NCBI GenBank assembly: GCA_963663965.2
Contig: CAXXFK010000025.1
Coordinates: 1-64,000 of the forward strand
DNA from: Sedimentisphaerales bacterium
GTDB lineage: Bacteria; Planctomycetota; Phycisphaerae; Sedimentisphaerales; SM23-30
Reading direction: 5' to 3'
DNA: 64,000 bases
The position numbers and the translations under genes are program-made. Below are positions 2,968 through 13,214 of this stretch, piece by piece. Within the stretch, counting starts at the first letter, position 1. The number at the start of each line of letters is the position of its first letter. Under the pieces are notes generated by a model. It worked only from the letters and a program-made list of their open reading frames with translations. It did no database searches and was not told where the DNA came from.

Positions 2968-3207
2968 ATGCTCGTTCTAAGCAGACAAAAAGACCAGACC
3001 ATAATGATTGGCGACAATATCGAAATCACCGTCGTGGATATTCGCGGCGATAAGGTGCGTCTCGGTATTACCGCCCCCACCCAGATTCCTGTGCATCGCA
3101 AAGAAGTCTATGAAGCGATCAAGCAGGAAAATAAACAGGCCGCGAATGTAACATTGCAGGACATCTGCAATCTCGATAAGCAAGCCCCTGATCAAGATAA
3201 AAAGTAA
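2968..3207 (+). CDS. csrA: Carbon storage regulator CsrA
   Basis: [47 protein letters not shown]-terminal extension (ENKQAA) as in FliW-regulated CsrAs; SD AAGGAG. Confidence 0.97.
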
Positions 3208-3360
3208 ACGGTGCATGTGAAAACATGATAGCCCTGATTAAAAGACAAATGAATAACCCGGCCGGTAAGATACCGGCTCACCCTTCCGGTCATCCGCTGA
3301 CAGACCGGCATGGCCTTATGCCGCAACCTGAACGCGGATAACAATCATGGAGGATTCGTT

Positions 3361-4803
3361 ATGACCAGGATCAATACGAATATCGCATCATTAACCGCCA
3401 GAACCCATCTGGGACGCGCGACCAACGATTTAAACAGTACGTTGCAGCGTTTGAGCAGCGGCCTGCGCATCACGCGCGGCGCGGACGATCCGGCCGGCCT
3501 GATTGTGTCGGAAAAACTGCGCTCCGAAATTTCCAGTATCTCTGAAGCGATTGGCAATTCCGAGCGCGCCTCGAATGTCATTGCCACCGCGGAAGGCGCC
3601 CTGGCAGAAGTCGCCGCGTTGCTGATCAATATCAAGGAATTGACGGTTCAGGCCGCCAATTCCGGCGGGATGAGTCGCGAAGAAATCGAGGCCAATCAGC
3701 TTCAGGTCGATTCGGCCATCGACAGTATCACGCGAATCGCCAATTCCACGACATTTGCCGGGCTGAACCTGCTCAATGGTAATATGTCTTATATTACCAG
3801 TGGTGTGGCGACGTCGGCGGTACGGGGTCTGGATATCTACAGTTCGATGCTGGGAGACCAGAATTATATGACCGTGGAAATCAACGGCGTTTCCGCGGCA
3901 GAGCGCGGCGCTCTGTATTATCGCACCAGCCAGATTGGCAGTGCGATTACCCTGGAGATTGCCTCCAGCAAGGGCGTCGAGGTGATCCCGTTTGCCCAGA
4001 GCGCCAGTGTTTCGACCATTCTCGAAGCGATCAACGCCCGTACCGACGCGCTCGGGGTCAGCGCCTCTTATATCAGCGGCGCCGGCAGTGAAGAGCAGGG
4101 CATTATCATTCGGAGCGTCGACTATGGCAGCGATGCGTTTGTGTCCGTGCAGACCCTGCCCAGCAGTTACGGGACCTTTACGACGCGGAATGCCGGTGGT
4201 ACTGCCACACAGCGTGATTATGGGACGGATGTCGTCGCCACGGTAAATGGCGCGGCCATTGCCGGGGTAGGCGAACGCATCACGCTGAAAAGTTCTATTC
4301 TCGATATGCGTGTTAAACTCAATTCCGCGTTTGGATCGGGTGACAGCACAACCTTTTATATTACCGGAGGAGGAGCCATGTTCCAGCTTGGACCTCATAT
4401 CGATTCCTCTGAACAAGTCAATGTCGGAATTCAGTCGATTGTTGCCAGCAGGCTGGGATCCGCTGAAAATGGATATCTCAGCGAAGTGCGTACCGGCGGC
4501 TCAGCGTCACTGGTAGGCAATAATTCATCGACTGCCGCCAAGATTATCGAAGAAGCCATTGTGCAGATATCGGTCCTGCGGGGACGCCTGGGCGCCTTCG
4601 AACGCAACACGGTTGATACCAATATCAACTCACTGCGGATCACATTGGAGAATGTGACCTCGGCCGAATCCATGATTCGCGATGCCGATTTTGCGGAGGA
4701 ATCCGCCAATATGACGCGCAGCCAGATTCTGGTGAGTGCCGGTACTTCTGTGCTGGCCATGGCCAATCAGACGCCGCAATCGGTATTGGCGCTGTTGCAA
4801 TAA
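3361..4803 (+). CDS. fliC: Flagellin 1
   Basis: MTRINTN...RLSSGLRI...DDPAGL N-terminus; IRDADFAEE...QIL...PQSVLALLQ C-terminus; SD GGAGG before ATG 3361. Confidence 0.95.
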   Translation: MTRINTNIASLTARTHLGRATNDLNSTLQRLSSGLRITRGADDPAGLIVSEKLRSEISSISEAIGNSERASNVIATAEGALAEVAALLINIKELTVQAANSGGMSREEIEANQLQVDSAIDSITRIANSTTFAGLNLLNGNMSYITSGVATSAVRGLDIYSSMLGDQNYMTVEINGVSAAERGALYYRTSQIGSAITLEIASSKGVEVIPFAQSASVSTILEAINARTDALGVSASYISGAGSEEQGIIIRSVDYGSDAFVSVQTLPSSYGTFTTRNAGGTATQRDYGTDVVATVNGAAIAGVGERITLKSSILDMRVKLNSAFGSGDSTTFYITGGGAMFQLGPHIDSSEQVNVGIQSIVASRLGSAENGYLSEVRTGGSASLVGNNSSTAAKIIEEAIVQISVLRGRLGAFERNTVDTNINSLRITLENVTSAESMIRDADFAEESANMTRSQILVSAGTSVLAMANQTPQSVLALLQ

Positions 4804-5164: not shown

Positions 5165-5193
5165 TAAAGTGGCCTGTCTGTACAGGACGATTA
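5165..5193 (+). promoter_or_regulatory. Putative sigma28 (FliA/WhiG-type) promoter for flagellin 2
   Basis: TAAA-N17-GACGATTA; same pattern as the sites before flagellin 3, fliD and fliS. Confidence 0.55.
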
Positions 5194-5498: not shown

Positions 5499-6959
5499 AT
5501 GAGCAGAATAAACACCAATGTAACCGCGTTAACCAGTTCAAGAATCTTGAACGAAAACACCACCAGCCTGAACAAATCGCTGGAAAAATTGAGCACCGGT
5601 TTGCGTATTAACCGGGGCTCGGACGATCCGGCCGGTTTGATCGCGTCGGAAAACCTCAGAAAACAGATTGCCGGTACCGAAACCGCGATCAAGAACGCCG
5701 AACGGGCGATCACGATTGTCGGAACGGCCGAAGGCGGTCTCAACGAAGTCAGCAACATGCTGGTTGAATTGCAGGCCCTGCTGGGCGAAGCCGCCAATAC
5801 CGGCGGTATGAGTACCGAGGAAATCGACGCCAATCAACAGCAGGTGGACTCCATCCTTAATACCATTGACCGGATTTCCAACTCGACCGAGTTTGAAGGC
5901 ATGAAACTGCTCAATGGTAACCGGGCCTATACTACCAGTTCGGTCAGTTCCATGTTTATTGGCGAACTTCAGGTTAATGCCGCTAAGTTGATTGATGGCG
6001 CGACGATGCAGGTCGATGTGGCCAAGACGTCGGCCGCCAATACCGGTATTATCTATCTCAGTGGTGAAGGACTCTCTGGAACCGATGCGATGACCATTCA
6101 GATTGGCTCAGCGCGTGGCACCACGGAATTGACCTTTGCCGGTAGTACGGCCATTGCTGATATCATTACCGGTATCAACCAGGTTAAAGAAGTCACCGGT
6201 GTTTCCGCTTTCCTGTCTACTGACGGCAATTCGGCCACCCTGCGCAGTGTGGATTTCGGTTCTGGCGCTTATGTCAGTCTGGAGGTTCTAGCAGGAAACA
6301 GCACTGGTAGTAAATTGAGAATCAGTGAAGCTGTCGCTGGTGGCCATGTGACCAGTTCAAAGGTCGATGGCGTGAATGCCACCGCGACCATTAATGGTAC
6401 ATCCGCGACGGCTGACGGCAAGAAACTGACCATCCGTACCGCCATGCTGGATGCCGAACTGGATCTGGACGGCACGGCTGCCTTGTCTTCAGCCGACTGG
6501 AGCACTACGTTTGGGATCACCGGTGGTGGTTCAGACTTTGCCCTGGGTTCTCAGGTAGATGCAATCGGTCTGGAATCGATCGGAATACAGAATGTCGCCA
6601 CGACAGCATTAGGCAATGTTGATGATGGCTATCTTAATACGCTGAAGAGCGGTGGCGATAATGCCCTGACCAGCGACAACCTGTATACGGCGCAACGGAT
6701 TGTCAGTTCCGCAATTAAGGATATTTCCAAATTACGCGGCCGGTTAGGTTCGTTCCAGAAGAATACCCTGGAAACCACGATTAATTCACTGAAGGTGGCT
6801 AAAGAAAACCTCTACTCAGCGAATTCGGCCATCCGCGATACCGATTTTGCGACCGAAACCTCGAATATGACCCGGTCACAGATTCTGGTACAGGCTTCGA
6901 CCAGTGTTCTGGCGCAGTCTAACTTTGCTCCGCAAAATGTATTAGCCTTGCTGGGCTGA
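5499..6959 (+). CDS. fliC: Flagellin 2
   Basis: MSRINTN...KLSTGLRINRGSDDPAGL; IRDTDFATE...PQNVLALLG; SD AGGAGG. Confidence 0.95.
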   Translation: MSRINTNVTALTSSRILNENTTSLNKSLEKLSTGLRINRGSDDPAGLIASENLRKQIAGTETAIKNAERAITIVGTAEGGLNEVSNMLVELQALLGEAANTGGMSTEEIDANQQQVDSILNTIDRISNSTEFEGMKLLNGNRAYTTSSVSSMFIGELQVNAAKLIDGATMQVDVAKTSAANTGIIYLSGEGLSGTDAMTIQIGSARGTTELTFAGSTAIADIITGINQVKEVTGVSAFLSTDGNSATLRSVDFGSGAYVSLEVLAGNSTGSKLRISEAVAGGHVTSSKVDGVNATATINGTSATADGKKLTIRTAMLDAELDLDGTAALSSADWSTTFGITGGGSDFALGSQVDAIGLESIGIQNVATTALGNVDDGYLNTLKSGGDNALTSDNLYTAQRIVSSAIKDISKLRGRLGSFQKNTLETTINSLKVAKENLYSANSAIRDTDFATETSNMTRSQILVQASTSVLAQSNFAPQNVLALLG

Positions 6960-6974
6960 TTATTTGACGCTATT

Positions 6975-7037
6975 CTGGTGGATGAAGTCCTGACAGCGGC
7001 GGTACTCATCGTCTCTGTCAGGCTTCATCCTGTCCAG
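6975..7037 (+). terminator. Long hairpin after flagellin 2 (terminator or stability element)
   Basis: GGATGAAG-t-CCTGACAG ... CTGTCAGG-CTTCATCC inverted repeat just after the stop codon; no strong U-tract. Confidence 0.55.
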
Positions 7038-7377
7038 TTAACTTTAGTATTTTCAATGCCGGATAAGCCCTTGATTGCCGGATATTCCAACGAATCGTTG
7101 AATAATAAATGCTGGGTTCGATAACAAAAATAAAAAAAAATATGGACCTGAGTTTCGAAACGATTTCATTAGATTATCACAACCCGCAATTGAGGAATTA
7201 TCAACAGTGATGATTTTCTTTTTTATTTGTAACTATCTTAATTGCAATATGATAAGAATATTATCCTGCATGGCGATGGTCTGAGATCCCACCAAATATT
7301 TCCCGGAATATCGGTTTTTCCGGGCACATCGGTCTAGGTCCAATAATACGATTTTGTTAAAATATTATCGCCCTTTC

Positions 7378-7405
7378 TAAAGTTTTATCGCCACTTTGTC
7401 GAAAA
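7378..7405 (+). promoter_or_regulatory. Putative sigma28-type promoter for flagellin 3 and its long leader
   Basis: TAAA-N16-GTCGAAAA. Confidence 0.5.
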
Positions 7406-7489
7406 CTAAAGAGCAAACAGTGATGGTTTCCTGCTCAGAGCAATTCCGGGTTGCCAGAGCGAAATTATAGCTGTCTTGCAAAAATCTGA

Positions 7490-7938
7490 AGAGCCGGCCA
7501 GGATGATTGCCGGGATTCAGGACCAGTGTCGAAAGTTGTAAAGGAGTTGCAACCAGACATGCTGGACAATTTGAACCATGAAACGGATTTCGGCCGATTG
7601 GTTTCGGCCAGGTGCTGCTGCCAGGTGGAACCCCGCTTACGCATCTCTTATATTATCTTCGGATGGTAATCTAATGTACTGGTAATGTACGCGGATTCGG
7701 TTCGTGAGAACCCTCGCCGAATCTGCTTTATACAGTCCTTGCTGTCACGGCTCCAGGACGGTGAAATCGCGTGATTTCACGCTGTGAACAGGAAGTCTGG
7801 CCAAGACGAATCAATGGCTTCAATATGGACTGTAAATTCCGGACAGACCGGTTCCGGGACGCGTAAATTAATGTAACAAGGTTAACGGTCTGTAAGCTCA
7901 GGCGAAATGAATGCCTGCCTTGTCACGGAGGATAGACC
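7490..7938 (+). ncRNA. Candidate structured GGA-rich leader / CsrA-binding RNA upstream of flagellin 3
   Basis: 16 GGA on the + strand versus 4 on the - strand in 7500-7935; many hairpins, several with GGA in the loop; no long ORF. Confidence 0.5.
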
Positions 7939-9396
7939 ATGTCACGGATTAATACTAATGTATCCTCGATGAATGCGATCCACAAGTTGGTCGCAAACAA
8001 CGAAGACCTGAACACACGCCTCAAAAGGCTCTCTTCCGGGTTGCGGATCACATCTGGCAAAGATGATCCGGCCGGCCTGATCGCTTCGGAAAATCTTCGG
8101 TCCGAAATGGCCGGTATCCGATCGGGTATCAGCAACTCGCTTCGGGCCTCGAACGTGATCGCGACGGCAGAAGGCGCCTTGAACGAAATCTCCTCTTTAT
8201 TAGTGAATATCAAAGAGCTGCTCGTTCAAACGGCGAATAAAGGCGCCCTGTCGCAGGAAGAGATCGACGCCAATCAGCTCCAGGTTGATTCCGCGATCAA
8301 TACGATCCAACGGATCGCCAATGCCACCGAATTTGAAGGGATGAAGCTCTTGAATGGCAACAAGGCTTATACCACCAGTTCGGTCAGTTCCATGTTTATT
8401 GGCGAACTCAGTGTCAATGCCGCCAAACTCATTGACGGCGCGACCATGCAGGTGGATGTCACTAAGACTTCTGCCGCTAATACTGGAATTATATATCTCA
8501 GCGGTGAAGGGCTCGGTGTCAGCTCCATGACGATTCAAATCGGATCGAACCGGGGAAATACCGAACTTTCTTTTGCAGCCAGTACCGCTATTGCCGATAT
8601 CATTGCTGCCATCAACCAGGTCAAAGAAGTGACCGGTGTATCGGCATTTTTGTCTACAGACGGGAATTCCGCCACTTTGCGTAGTGTCGACTTTGGCACC
8701 AATGCTTATGTCAGCCTGGAAGTCTTGTCAGGTGCATATACCGGCAACGATTTACGGATCAGTGAAACTGTAGCCGGTAACCATGCGACCGACAGTCAGG
8801 TTTATGGTGTGAACGCCCGTGCCACGATTAATGGTACCGCAGCCATCGCCGACGGAAAACGATTAACCGTCAGAACGGCGATGCTTGATGCCGAGTTGGA
8901 TCTGGAAGGAACTGCGGCTTTGTCCGCGGCGGACTGGACGAGCAGCTTTGGTGTCACCGGCGGCGGTTCCGATTTTGCGATTGGATCCAAGGTGGATGCG
9001 ATCGGCATGGAATCGCTAGGCATTATGAGTGTAGCCCCAAGTCAATTGGGCAATTATACCGACGGCTACCTTAACACGCTTAAGAGCGGTGCGACCAACG
9101 CCCTCAACGGCGACAATTTATATACCGCCCAGCGGATTGTGGACTCCGCGATCAAGGATATCTCCACATTGCGAGGCCGACTGGGTGCGTTCCAGAAAAA
9201 TATTCTCGAAACGAATGTGAATTCGTTGCGAGTTACCTTGGAGAATGTAACCGCTTCCGAATCTGCGATTCGCGATGCCGATTTCGCATCCGAAACCGCG
9301 GCCATGACCCGCGCGCAGATTCTGGTACAGGCCAATACTTCGGTCCTGTCCATGGCAAACACTTTGCCTCAGAGCGTCCTGGCACTACTCGGTTAA
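7939..9396 (+). CDS. fliC: Flagellin 3
   Basis: MSRINTN...RLSSGLRI...DDPAGL; IRDADFASE...PQSVLALLG; SD GGAGG. Confidence 0.95.
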   Translation: MSRINTNVSSMNAIHKLVANNEDLNTRLKRLSSGLRITSGKDDPAGLIASENLRSEMAGIRSGISNSLRASNVIATAEGALNEISSLLVNIKELLVQTANKGALSQEEIDANQLQVDSAINTIQRIANATEFEGMKLLNGNKAYTTSSVSSMFIGELSVNAAKLIDGATMQVDVTKTSAANTGIIYLSGEGLGVSSMTIQIGSNRGNTELSFAASTAIADIIAAINQVKEVTGVSAFLSTDGNSATLRSVDFGTNAYVSLEVLSGAYTGNDLRISETVAGNHATDSQVYGVNARATINGTAAIADGKRLTVRTAMLDAELDLEGTAALSAADWTSSFGVTGGGSDFAIGSKVDAIGMESLGIMSVAPSQLGNYTDGYLNTLKSGATNALNGDNLYTAQRIVDSAIKDISTLRGRLGAFQKNILETNVNSLRVTLENVTASESAIRDADFASETAAMTRAQILVQANTSVLSMANTLPQSVLALLG

Positions 9397-9897: not shown

Positions 9898-10016
9898 CAT
9901 CAACAAGAGTTTGATGATTGCAATCATGCCGCATCTGGGCCAGACCGATGGGATATCGGCCATCCAGATGTATTTCGACTGCGCTATGGATGGCATCAGT
10001 CGGAAAGGAAATCGCT

Positions 10017-13000
10017 ATGGGAACAATTTCATCCAGCACGGGACTGATTTCCGGCCTGGATATCGAGAGCATCGTTTCGCAACTCATTGCGATCGAAGCC
10101 CGGACGAAAGATCAGGTCGATACCCGGATTGAGGAACAGACTAACAGGCAAACGGCGCTGCTGGGACTGCAAGCCAAAGTCATGGCGATTCAGGTTTCGG
10201 CGGCCAGTTTCAACAAAGACCAGATTTTCGAACAAAAGGCAGTATCCATCAGTAATGAAGATGTTCTTACTGCTACTGCGACTAAACTAGCCCAGAAGGG
10301 CAGTTATAACCTTACAGTCAAACAACTGGCCAGTACCCATCAGTTTATCAGCCGGGGATATTCCAGTATCGATAGCTCTGTCGGCGCCGGTACCATTACT
10401 TTCGAAATGGGCAATGGCCAGGTTGCCCGTCAAACCCTGCTCGATCAGTTGAATGGGGGCCAGGGAATTCAGAGAGGTCAGATCGAAATAACCGATCGAT
10501 CCGGCCAGACGGCGGTCATTGATCTGCGGACGGCCCAGACAGTTCAAGATGTTCTGGATGAAATTAATTACAGTTCGAAAATTAATGTCACTGCTTCCGT
10601 ATCCGGTGGCCGGATTGTCATCAACGATAATACCGGCGGGACCGGCAATCTGGTTGTCGCCGATCTACGCGGCGGCCATACCGCCACAGACCTGGGAATT
10701 GCCGCGAATGTAGCCGCCAGTACCATTGATGGAAACAATATCGCCAGAATTGGCGTCGAGACTTTGCTTAAAAGTTTAAATGATGGCAATGGAATCCGGG
10801 GGGTGAACAGTGGTAGTGATGACCTGAAATTTACTCTGGCTGATGGAACAGTTCTCAATGTCGGCCTTAAAAGTCAGATGCATCACACCGTTGGTGATCC
10901 AGCAAGTAAAGCCACCACCCTGCAATCGCTCAACAGTGGCGCCGGTGTCCGGGGCGGTATGTTTCGGATCACCGATCAGAACGGTCGTTCAGTCGATATC
11001 GACATGGATGATTTTAAAGACCGTTACGGTAGCCGGGGAACATTAACCCAACTTGAGAATTATATCAAAGAACAGATCCAGCGTCAGTATCCCGACGGTG
11101 AAATGAAGATTTCTTTTGCGTTTAATGCCATGGATCATATTGTGCTCAAGGATGAAAGCACGCTGGAATACCGCAGTGGAAGCGCGGAATCGCAAAAGTT
11201 TACCATTGAAGATCTCGATGGCGGTTCTGCCGCTGCCGATCTTGGCATAGCGGGATCCGTAAACGGAACTACTATCAATGGAACCCAGGTCTGGTTTATG
11301 GAAACGGTTGGCGATGTGATTAACGCGGTTAATAATCACTGGGATAATAATGGTTCGCTTAAGTTACAGATCAACAGCAGTGGTAAGGGATTGCAGGTAC
11401 TCGACCTGAGCGCAGGCGCCGGTTCGTTAACCGTTGAAGCTAACGGTGAAGATAACTTTGCCGCGCTTGATCTTGGTTTGCTGACGCTTGATTCCAATAA
11501 CAACGGCCGTTCTCTGACTGCCGGATTGAATACCGTATTGCTCCGGTCGCTTAATGGCGGCAGCGGTTCTACCACCGCTACCGAAGAGTTTGCCAGAGGG
11601 ACATTAACCATTCAGGGCAGCGGTGGTGGTTCAGCTACCATGGCGTTTGACGCCGGCAGTTCGCTTAATGACGTTATCGAATGGATCAATAATTCCGGAA
11701 CCGGACTATCTGCCCAGGTTAATTCCGTCGGTAATGGCTTGATCCTGAAAGACGATAACGATGGCGCTCTTTCGGTCAGTGGCGATCTGGCTGATTTTCT
11801 GAATATTGCCCGGGATACTGCCGATGGTGTCAGCTCGGTGAACAGTGGGAATCTACAGTTGCAGTATATTTCGGAGACCACGGCGCTGAAAGATTTGCGT
11901 CAGGGTGAAGGGATACGGCTGGGCACTTTCAAACTCACCGATGGCACCGGTGTGACCAAAGATGTCGATCTGGCTCAAGATGGTATCAAAACCATTGAAG
12001 ATGTAATCAACAAGATCAATACCGCCGGTACCAATGTCCGCGCCCGCATCAACGATACCGGTGATGGGATTTTACTTTACGATACCAGTGAAGGCGATAA
12101 CCTGCAGGCTATCAAAGTTGCCAATGCCCGCGGCAGCAGTGTTGCCAGTGATCTGGGTTTGCTGAAAACAGCCACCAAACAGGCCGATGGTTCCTATATT
12201 CTGGATGGTTCCTACGAATATAAATTGGAAGTCGGTGGGGGGGACAGCATTGATGATATCGTCACGCGGATCAACGATGCCGATATGGGATTGCAGGCCG
12301 GCCTGATCAACGATGGCAATAATTACCGGATCAGTTTTGTCAGTGAAGTGGCCGGCCGGGCCGGCAATATTTTTCTCGATCCCGGCTCGACCAATCTGTC
12401 TACCGAAACGTTATCCACCGGACAGGACGCGCTGGTTTTACTGGGCGGTACCGATACGTCCAATCCACTGCTGATTACCAGCCGTACCAATACACTCAAG
12501 GAAGCGGTTAAAGGAGTCACCATTGAACTCCAGCAAGTGAGTGATACCCCGGTTAACCTTGAAATTGATCAGGATATCGATGGTATTGTCACTCAAATGA
12601 AAAATTTTGTGACCTCCTTTAACGAGGTCATGAAGCTGATTAATGACCAGGCCAGTTACGATGTGGCCACCGAAACCAAAGGCATTTTATATGCCGAACA
12701 TTCCGTCAGTACTGTCCGGCAGGCGCTGATCAACATGGTGCAACGTACGGTTCCCGGGCTGGACACCTATAACCGGCTCAGCGATGTCGGGGTGCATTTT
12801 GCCCCGATGGCTCAGGAAACAGCTGCTGACGCCAATGGTGATAACAAAACCTATGCCGTGGCCGGGGTGACTCAACTCGATTTTGACGAAAGCGAATTTC
12901 GTGAAGCGTTTGAAGCCGACCCGGATGCCGTGGTATCATTGTTTCTCCAGGAAACCTCTGGTATCGGTGATTATATCGGCGGACGACTGGAAAATCTTGC

Positions 13001-13214
13001 CAGTACCACTTCCAGCAGTACCATGAAAATCAGCGCTGAGTCAATCGGCACCAGTATCGACCTGCTCAAGAAACGTTCTGAATACCTTCAGCAACGACTC
13101 GACGCCAAGGAACAAAGTCTCTATAACCAGTTTTATCAGATGGAACTGGCCCTCTCCAATATGCAATCGCAACAATCGGCCTTGTCTCAGCTGGGATCAC
13201 TGATTTCAGGTTAA
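10017..13214 (+). CDS. fliD: Flagellar filament cap protein FliD, large and multi-module
   Basis: MGTISSSTGLISGLDIESIVSQLIAIE N-terminus; YNLTVKQLA; C-terminal LYNQFYQMELALSNMQSQQSALSQL; SD AAAGGA before ATG 10017. Confidence 0.93.
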   Translation: MGTISSSTGLISGLDIESIVSQLIAIEARTKDQVDTRIEEQTNRQTALLGLQAKVMAIQVSAASFNKDQIFEQKAVSISNEDVLTATATKLAQKGSYNLTVKQLASTHQFISRGYSSIDSSVGAGTITFEMGNGQVARQTLLDQLNGGQGIQRGQIEITDRSGQTAVIDLRTAQTVQDVLDEINYSSKINVTASVSGGRIVINDNTGGTGNLVVADLRGGHTATDLGIAANVAASTIDGNNIARIGVETLLKSLNDGNGIRGVNSGSDDLKFTLADGTVLNVGLKSQMHHTVGDPASKATTLQSLNSGAGVRGGMFRITDQNGRSVDIDMDDFKDRYGSRGTLTQLENYIKEQIQRQYPDGEMKISFAFNAMDHIVLKDESTLEYRSGSAESQKFTIEDLDGGSAAADLGIAGSVNGTTINGTQVWFMETVGDVINAVNNHWDNNGSLKLQINSSGKGLQVLDLSAGAGSLTVEANGEDNFAALDLGLLTLDSNNNGRSLTAGLNTVLLRSLNGGSGSTTATEEFARGTLTIQGSGGGSATMAFDAGSSLNDVIEWINNSGTGLSAQVNSVGNGLILKDDNDGALSVSGDLADFLNIARDTADGVSSVNSGNLQLQYISETTALKDLRQGEGIRLGTFKLTDGTGVTKDVDLAQDGIKTIEDVINKINTAGTNVRARINDTGDGILLYDTSEGDNLQAIKVANARGSSVASDLGLLKTATKQADGSYILDGSYEYKLEVGGGDSIDDIVTRINDADMGLQAGLINDGNNYRISFVSEVAGRAGNIFLDPGSTNLSTETLSTGQDALVLLGGTDTSNPLLITSRTNTLKEAVKGVTIELQQVSDTPVNLEIDQDIDGIVTQMKNFVTSFNEVMKLINDQASYDVATETKGILYAEHSVSTVRQALINMVQRTVPGLDTYNRLSDVGVHFAPMAQETAADANGDNKTYAVAGVTQLDFDESEFREAFEADPDAVVSLFLQETSGIGDYIGGRLENLASTTSSSTMKISAESIGTSIDLLKKRSEYLQQRLDAKEQSLYNQFYQMELALSNMQSQQSALSQLGSLISG

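Follow-up and report, generated by a model that had tools for sequence, protein, structure and literature searches.

The locus described here raises the question of what is achieved by a long non-coding stretch in front of a flagellin gene that lies close to the genes for FliW and CsrA. The window, by which we mean the whole stretch of 64,000 nucleotides of a Sedimentisphaerales bacterium contig that was analysed, contains three flagellin genes, and the gap between the second (fla2) and the third (fla3) is 979 nt. In the known systems, as they are described in the papers cited below, CsrA blocks ribosome sites that lie in ANGGA hairpins, and FliW switches between flagellin and CsrA. A preliminary description of the window had proposed that fla3 is preceded by a GGA-rich, highly structured leader that acts as a built-in sponge for CsrA, and we have followed up this proposal by comparison with relatives, by folding and by motif analysis.

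The flagellar genes of the window begin with flgL (569-2347), whose product of 592 residues is well above the length of the family model that it matched. The single-copy genes fliW (2406-2864, with a ribosome site of the CANGGAGG type at 2390-2398) and csrA (2968-3207) precede flagellin 1 (fla1; 3345-4803, with its ATG at 3361 and a hexaloop-type ribosome site), fla2 (5499-6959) and fla3 (7939-9396, 485 residues), which is followed by fliD and fliS; fliW, csrA, the three flagellin genes and all of the fla3 elements given coordinates as features below are on the + strand. FliD (9918-13214, about 1090 residues) is, like FlgL, far longer than the family model matched. In a scan of the whole assembly, csrA, fliW and FliA each passed the cut-off once, and a fourth flagellin-like gene, divergent at 37% identity and kept in most family members, lies outside the window at G000:C25:254150-254560. 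The best structural match of the window's CsrA was 5dmb_D, a structure that, like residue Asn55 of the protein, we take to be linked to FliW. The protein also has a C-terminal extension and Arg44, for which a role in RNA binding is described in PMC4005645. Hexaloop-type ribosome sites number 11 genome-wide, three of them being those of fliW, fla1 and fla3, and fla1 is, by the form of this site, a predicted CsrA target. The GGA motifs at the ribosome sites of csrA (2955-2970) and fliW (2390-2398) are conserved across the family, which suggests that both genes may be autoregulated. An assembly artefact was ruled out, the stretch being unbroken in contigs from two runs of one sample (possibly the source sample), and so was a repeat or mobile element, the fla3 leader being single copy in the genome. 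No RNA data set is among those listed as containing the stretch, an absence that is uninformative as to expression.

As had been claimed, a match to what we take to be the sigma28 consensus lies at 7378-7405 (-35 at 7378-7385, -10 at 7398-7405), and FliA is encoded in the genome; from this motif we infer the start site. All 36 distinct homologous leaders of full length, themselves defined by that promoter match, have the motif 501-654 nt upstream of the ATG; a few others are cut by contig or locus ends. Judged from 27 non-redundant homologues and from folding, the stretch 7411-7938 is likely to be the 5' leader of the fla3 mRNA, and is predicted to be non-coding and structured. The reported absence of a long ORF from these roughly 530 nt also held, because the longest overlapping ORF is of 59 residues if the flagellin itself and one antisense frame inside it are set aside; a small protein or conserved upstream ORF was ruled out, the lengths of the 27 leaders being even over the three frames. 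No intrinsic terminator was called in the window's leader, and the 27 do not share one at any common position. The region 7338-7373, immediately before the fla3 -35 box, carries a dyad-like pair that is conserved in most of the 27 relatives (GTCCNATAA, about 18 nt, TTATCGC), at times with further copies 21-22 nt upstream; each half resembles a sigma28 -10 box, and the pair is possibly an activator site.

The count behind the original proposal, 16 GGA against 4 TCC at 7500-7935, was reproduced exactly. Dinucleotide shuffling gave a mean of 9.4 for that interval, which the preliminary description had itself chosen (p=0.004), and of 10.6 for the whole leader, which also holds 16 (p=0.021). The expectation of an excess over shuffled controls was therefore borne out to a modest degree, but 69 of 1474 intergenic strands in the same genome, by crude gene calls, carry at least 16 GGA in 530 nt, and 17 are found within the 695 nt of the fla2 intergenic region. 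Over the 27 leaders the mean is 14.7 against 11.0 expected, a small excess that argues against a titrating role. We therefore set the raw count aside as proof, since so many strands equal it and the richest intergenic windows are purine-rich repeats. These dispersed intergenic repeats, for example at G000:C28:504859-506060, C11:15599-16408 and C26:100556-102651, reach as many as 27 GGA per 530 nt in a single strand and so exceed the fla3 leader, and some are near-identical between contigs. Evidence from the window alone, without its relatives, is weak; the feature is real because it is conserved across the family, not because of its raw GGA count.

A DNA search of 60 relatives matched 22 of the 24 family genomes, and in many of them the promoter was matched separately, about 550 nt before the ATG. 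In pattern scans, 13 of 20 genome matches and 23 of 50 metagenome matches preceded a flagellin, and those without one (7 and 27, respectively) were dropped; the scans used the hexaloop motif of the ribosome site, so that the conservation of this one site is partly circular. Filtering the 36 leaders to below 88% identity left 27, all from one Sedimentisphaerales family and all kin, so that counts over them are not independent. Their mean identity is 55%, the window's leader being 49-57% identical to the others, and their lengths are 468-621 nt. A covariance model of the 5' part, whose matches are mostly its training sequences, matched once and only once in each of 23 of the 25 family genomes; 22 of these matches lie 318-411 nt before the fla3 orthologue and the other ends 77 nt from a contig end. 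The two genomes with no match are G006 (85% complete), in which csrA and any close match to fla3 are missing as well, and G020 (78% complete), which has no fla3 orthologue either. The leader is always directly 5' of fla3, with one copy per genome, and it follows this gene rather than the cluster, because in genus g5 both the leader and fla3 are located away from fliW-csrA. Searched against 148 genomes of the class that lie outside the family, the same model had no matches, and its best value in 61 flagellin loci was E=0.56. The window had no Rfam match at gathering score; Csr/Rsm families gave none at E<=10 in 6900-8000 and none at E<=5 in 20 homologous loci, and known riboswitches and other Rfam cis-elements gave only weak matches, far under their gathering scores. 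The fla3 leader is thus a conserved structured RNA element that is absent from Rfam 15.

No triplet other than GGA is conserved at eight positions in 85% or more of the 27 leaders; six of the GGA positions are upstream of the ribosome site and two form it, and the next-best triplets reach three such positions, mostly as parts of the same motifs. The preliminary description had named as fatal to its proposal the case that the GGA loops are not conserved in relatives; this is not what the 27 leaders display. The window keeps seven of the eight (GGA at 7501, 7543, 7627, 7756, 7857, 7927 and 7930) and has lost site 2, and its remaining nine GGAs are present in only 0-7 of 26 relatives. All four bases occur at the N of ANGGA in sites 1 and 2, whose A and GGA are constant, as the A(N)GGAX grammar of CsrA sites given in PMC4005645 predicts.

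We defined a strict CsrA-type hairpin, after PMC4005645, as an A(N)GGAX loop closed by three pairs, and found 2.93 of these per fla3 leader (n=27), compared with 0.21 in shuffled sequences and 0.07 in the antisense. The folding z-score of the window's leader alone is -2.6, and the median local-folding z-score is -5.0 in the 27 fla3 leaders against -1.65 in fla2 leaders (15 shuffles each). In an arm-swap test, in which the native pairing of two arms is compared with that of chimeras between species (in kcal/mol), the native pairing was better in seven of nine modules (D1, P3, P4, site 4, site 5, site 6 and the hairpin before the ribosome site; p<=0.0002); P2 was borderline (0.053), the invariant ribosome-site hairpin gives no information, and three of three negative controls made of mismatched modules were null. 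Two further stems, a long-range stem and the base of D1, also pass. One of the GGA-free elements is D1, a long 5' hairpin (7413-7479; -17.7 versus -10.5, and -11.8 versus -8.3 for its basal stem), whose conserved loop (7441-7453) contains the self-complementary CCGG in 25 of 27 leaders and might be a kissing loop or a protein site; its conservation without GGA counts against a titrating role. Pair counts were above all 500 shuffles and slid controls on most measures, these shuffles ignoring relatedness, and all-against-all, tree-aware covariation gave no complementary pair below E=2.8 with 27 sequences and low power. The variable stems align poorly, and RNAalifold therefore recovered only 29 pairs from the full alignment.

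The individual sites differ in form. Three hairpins quoted in the preliminary description are present at 7494-7513, 7535-7553 and 7580-7591; the first two are sites 1 and 3, and the last is not conserved. Site 1 (7494-7513, GGA at 7501) is in relatives an ANGGAN hexaloop with a free N on a short stem, this stem having three pairs, 98.7% of cells paired and two pairs changed on both sides. The site 3 hairpin (7535-7553) lies in the P4 arm (7523-7565), and its GGA, at 7543, is present in 27 of 27 leaders and predicted to be 90% unpaired. Site 2 is 12 nt upstream of site 3 in 25 of 27 homologues, and would be buried, because its strand covaries with the P4 3' strand. The hairpin loop of site 4 (7623-7632, GGA at 7627) is without the leading A of the CsrA motif; its GGA is present in 24-25 of 27 leaders, with TGA in two, and its arm swap gives -10.6 versus -9.0. 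The heptamer CAGGA(T/C/A)G does occur three times (7499, 7754 and 7789), as had been noted. The site 5 arm (7731-7834) comprises a long-range stem, a CAGGACG bulge (7754-7760) and a hairpin (7761-7780); its GGA is in 27 of 27 leaders and 72% unpaired, and its inner helix is 93-97% paired with compensatory changes, while the basal helix as modelled is partly out of register (43% paired). The long-range stem, which had been proposed as a pairing of 7731-7738 with 7827-7834, is compensated across relatives (-10.8 versus -7.9); a proposed UUCG hairpin is not conserved. At site 6 a helix (7843-7893) surrounds a CAGGACG-type motif with its GGA at 7857, present in 26-27 of 27 leaders; eight of eight pairs are changed on both sides, and the arm swap gives -15.3 versus -11.2. 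The CAGGACG-type motifs of sites 5 and 6 presumably resemble the repeats of CsrB.

A hairpin at 7899-7917 (-9.6 versus -8.3, p=0.0002) precedes the ribosome-binding site, which itself lies in a CANGGANG hexaloop hairpin at 7921-7934 with GGA at 7927 and 7930. Its four-pair stem is 99% paired and nearly invariant; conservation of the GGAs of a ribosome site is expected in any case. Hexaloops of the CANGGANG type are a high-affinity form for CsrA according to PMC4894983, and it is likely, from the position of this best CsrA-type site over the ribosome site, that the fla3 mRNA is also a CsrA target. The predicted openness of sites 3 (0.90), 5 (0.72) and 6 (0.55) exceeds the background of 0.36, whereas sites 1, 2 and 4 and the ribosome site, at 0.29-0.44, are not or barely above average, which again speaks against titration, as do the covarying pairing of site 2, its loss from the window and the missing leading A of site 4. 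Neighbouring conserved sites are mostly a median 60-123 nt apart, and sites 1-4 are roughly 280-430 nt from the ribosome site.

The fla2 leader serves as an internal control, having its own sigma28-type promoter and no upstream CsrA hairpins. The 18 fla2 leaders have 0.11 strict hairpins each, and their only conserved GGA is that of the ribosome site, so that fla2 looks to be outside upstream CsrA control. The promoter motif is at 5165-5192 in the window, and all 18 leaders have it 193-389 nt upstream of their ATG. In 12 of these 18 leaders (L132-L149; 5275-5296 in the window) a strict pattern also finds a two-codon ORF (Met-X-stop) behind an internal ribosome site, an arrangement that is possibly a ribosome-stalling or stability element. 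Beyond the family, 27 flagellin loci of other Phycisphaerae comprised seven of the fla1 type and 20 of the fla2/3 type, and the 12 of these 20 that had a promoter call have leaders of 227-335 nt with 3.0 strict hairpins, compared with 0.11 when shuffled; none of these shorter leaders matched the 5' covariance model. The fla3-type examples (L152-L178) have 3-4 strict hairpins; an AAGGAGG hairpin that resembles a ribosome site lies inside several of these leaders, and an extended promoter motif is common to some. A multi-site flagellin leader therefore appears to be present in several families of the class, and the Sedimentisphaerales family has a long, distinct form of it. The extra length is not explained by CsrA capacity, because 227-335 nt hold as many strict hairpins.

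The reading that we favour, with a probability of roughly 0.55, is that the fla3 leader is repressed by CsrA at its ribosome-site hairpin and that its six upstream sites titrate further CsrA dimers. It is likely, by analogy, to be an enlarged dual-function leader of the Campylobacter jejuni flaA type within a FliW-CsrA circuit. The basis in hand is conservation, compensation, motif grammar and one copy per genome before fla3, in a genome with csrA, fliW and FliA. Transcription of fla3 would be late and FliA-driven; the mRNA would be repressed at 7921-7934 and its distal sites would load further dimers, each abundant fla3 mRNA carrying up to 3-4 CsrA dimers, not one. Free CsrA would be lowered, releasing fla1 and fliW, the ribosome sites of which have the same hexaloop form, and the ribosome site of fla3 would still be governed by FliW-flagellin partner switching. 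The proposal of a long structured leader with CsrA-type sites beside fliW-csrA thus stands, through its conservation in 27 leaders, but the term 'CsrB-like' was overstated for eight conserved GGAs in about 530 nt, about three of them in strict hairpins and several predicted to be buried, with no conserved terminator. We are more tentative about a broader version, in which a Csr sponge built into a Phycisphaerae flagellin mRNA, possibly also as a freed RNA, binds several dimers and with FliW times or ranks the three flagellins; if it were true, one circuit would combine antagonism by a protein with antagonism by a multi-dimer RNA, and the design may have arisen separately in several phyla.

The upstream sites might instead act only in cis, recruiting CsrA cooperatively, switching the fold or triggering Rho termination, and so control fla3 itself more tightly, with little effect on other mRNAs. 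The permanent fusion to fla3, at one copy per genome and with no conserved terminator, would fit such an operator, and the position of buried site 2, 12 nt from open site 3, would suit stepwise unzipping; PMC4005645 describes upstream GGA motifs as able to recruit CsrA to a ribosome site, and pgaA, with six sites, is a precedent (PMC7652899). We nevertheless consider it unlikely, given that most of the conserved sites are so widely spaced (the median 60-123 nt noted above), that the AU-rich linker after site 4 is not C-rich like a Rho site (C 10.7 versus G 9.9 per 58 nt), and that a switch pairing between site 1 and the P4 tail was rejected because it has no covariation (p=0.19). Moreover, any abundant multi-site mRNA would titrate CsrA if the two are near 1:1.

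The composition of the same linker, 65% AU against 46-50% elsewhere, would be in keeping with cleavage there, or early termination, leaving the 5' half, from D1 through site 4, to persist on its own as a CsrB-like small RNA of about 230-270 nt; the long 5' hairpin could stabilise such an RNA. This seems to us improbable, since no terminator-like site was found in the window or recurs at one position in the 27 leaders, and since sites 5 and 6, two of the three most open, sit in the 3' half. The conservation of D1 and the compensation of several variable hairpins that hold no conserved GGA, together with the predicted burial of several GGAs, could also mean that the fold serves mainly mRNA stability, localisation, dimerisation through the CCGG loop or binding of a ligand, and that CsrA binds just one neighbouring site besides the ribosome site. 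However, the islands of highest conservation are centred on GGA with the N position free, and no Rfam riboswitch or other family matches any leader, and we judge this explanation very improbable.

Our search of largely open-access literature found no study of long multi-site flagellin leaders and none of CsrA targets in planctomycetes. A 2020 review (PMC7652899) gives the joint action of FliW and small RNAs on CsrA as undetermined in any species, and reports that fliW is anti-correlated with BarA-UvrY, the system that makes the Csr small RNAs. A leader beside fliW-csrA would offer a defined RNA with named sites for the joint study of RNA and protein antagonism, and it adds to the planctomycetes a family of structured RNA that Rfam 15 does not contain. 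Because CsrA dimers and hag mRNA are reported to be near 1:1 in Bacillus subtilis (PMC6529632), several sites per mRNA would shift the switching threshold.

Among the known systems, as far as the cited sources describe them, B. subtilis hag (PMC6529632, PMC7652899) shares with this locus the fliW-csrA-flagellin cluster, the C-terminal extension of CsrA and a site over the ribosome site; hag has two sites, whereas here three flagellins have three leader designs, with the long multi-site form only at fla3. The E. coli pgaA leader (PMC7652899) likewise has many CsrA sites, six in all and the ribosome site included, but exposes rut sites for Rho termination, while the fla3 leader has no C-rich linker. 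The Salmonella fimAICDHF leader (Sterzenbach 2013, cited through PMC4894983 and PMC6527747) is similar as an mRNA leader that titrates CsrA and ranks surface structures. Like CsrB/CsrC and RsmZ (PMC7652899, PMC4005645), the fla3 leader has several conserved A(N)GGAX motifs, which are variously looped, single-stranded or buried, and its eight conserved GGAs equal the number in RsmZ. Those RNAs are stand-alone, terminated and BarA-UvrY-driven, whereas the fla3 leader is fused to its mRNA, has a sigma28-type promoter and has no Rfam match. CsrB carries 22 GGA (PMC7652899) and RsmZ eight in 127 nt (PMC4005645). With its eight conserved GGAs the fla3 leader is about four times sparser than RsmZ; all GGAs taken together, the leaders have about 15 in 540 nt where 11 are expected, and membership of the CsrB/RsmZ family fails on independence, GGA density and Rfam model match.

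The closest likeness is to the C. jejuni flaA leader (PMC4894983), which that paper describes as both a CsrA target and a titrator. Both are sigma28 flagellin leaders in organisms with FliW and CsrA, here with the C-terminal extension, both have a CANGGANG-type hexaloop on the ribosome site together with an upstream site, and both have conserved, compensated stems and, with the antagonist role putative for fla3, would combine target and antagonist in one RNA. The flaA leader is short, with 45 nt and two hairpins, probably for one dimer, whereas the fla3 leaders, at about 470-620 nt with eight conserved GGAs, add CAGGACG sites in a bulge or internal loop and extra domains that are free of GGA. 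Titration has been demonstrated for flaA (PMC4894983) and is what we infer for fla3; by this analogy, the long multi-site flagellin leader is likely to be a larger-scale variant of the dual-function design of flaA.
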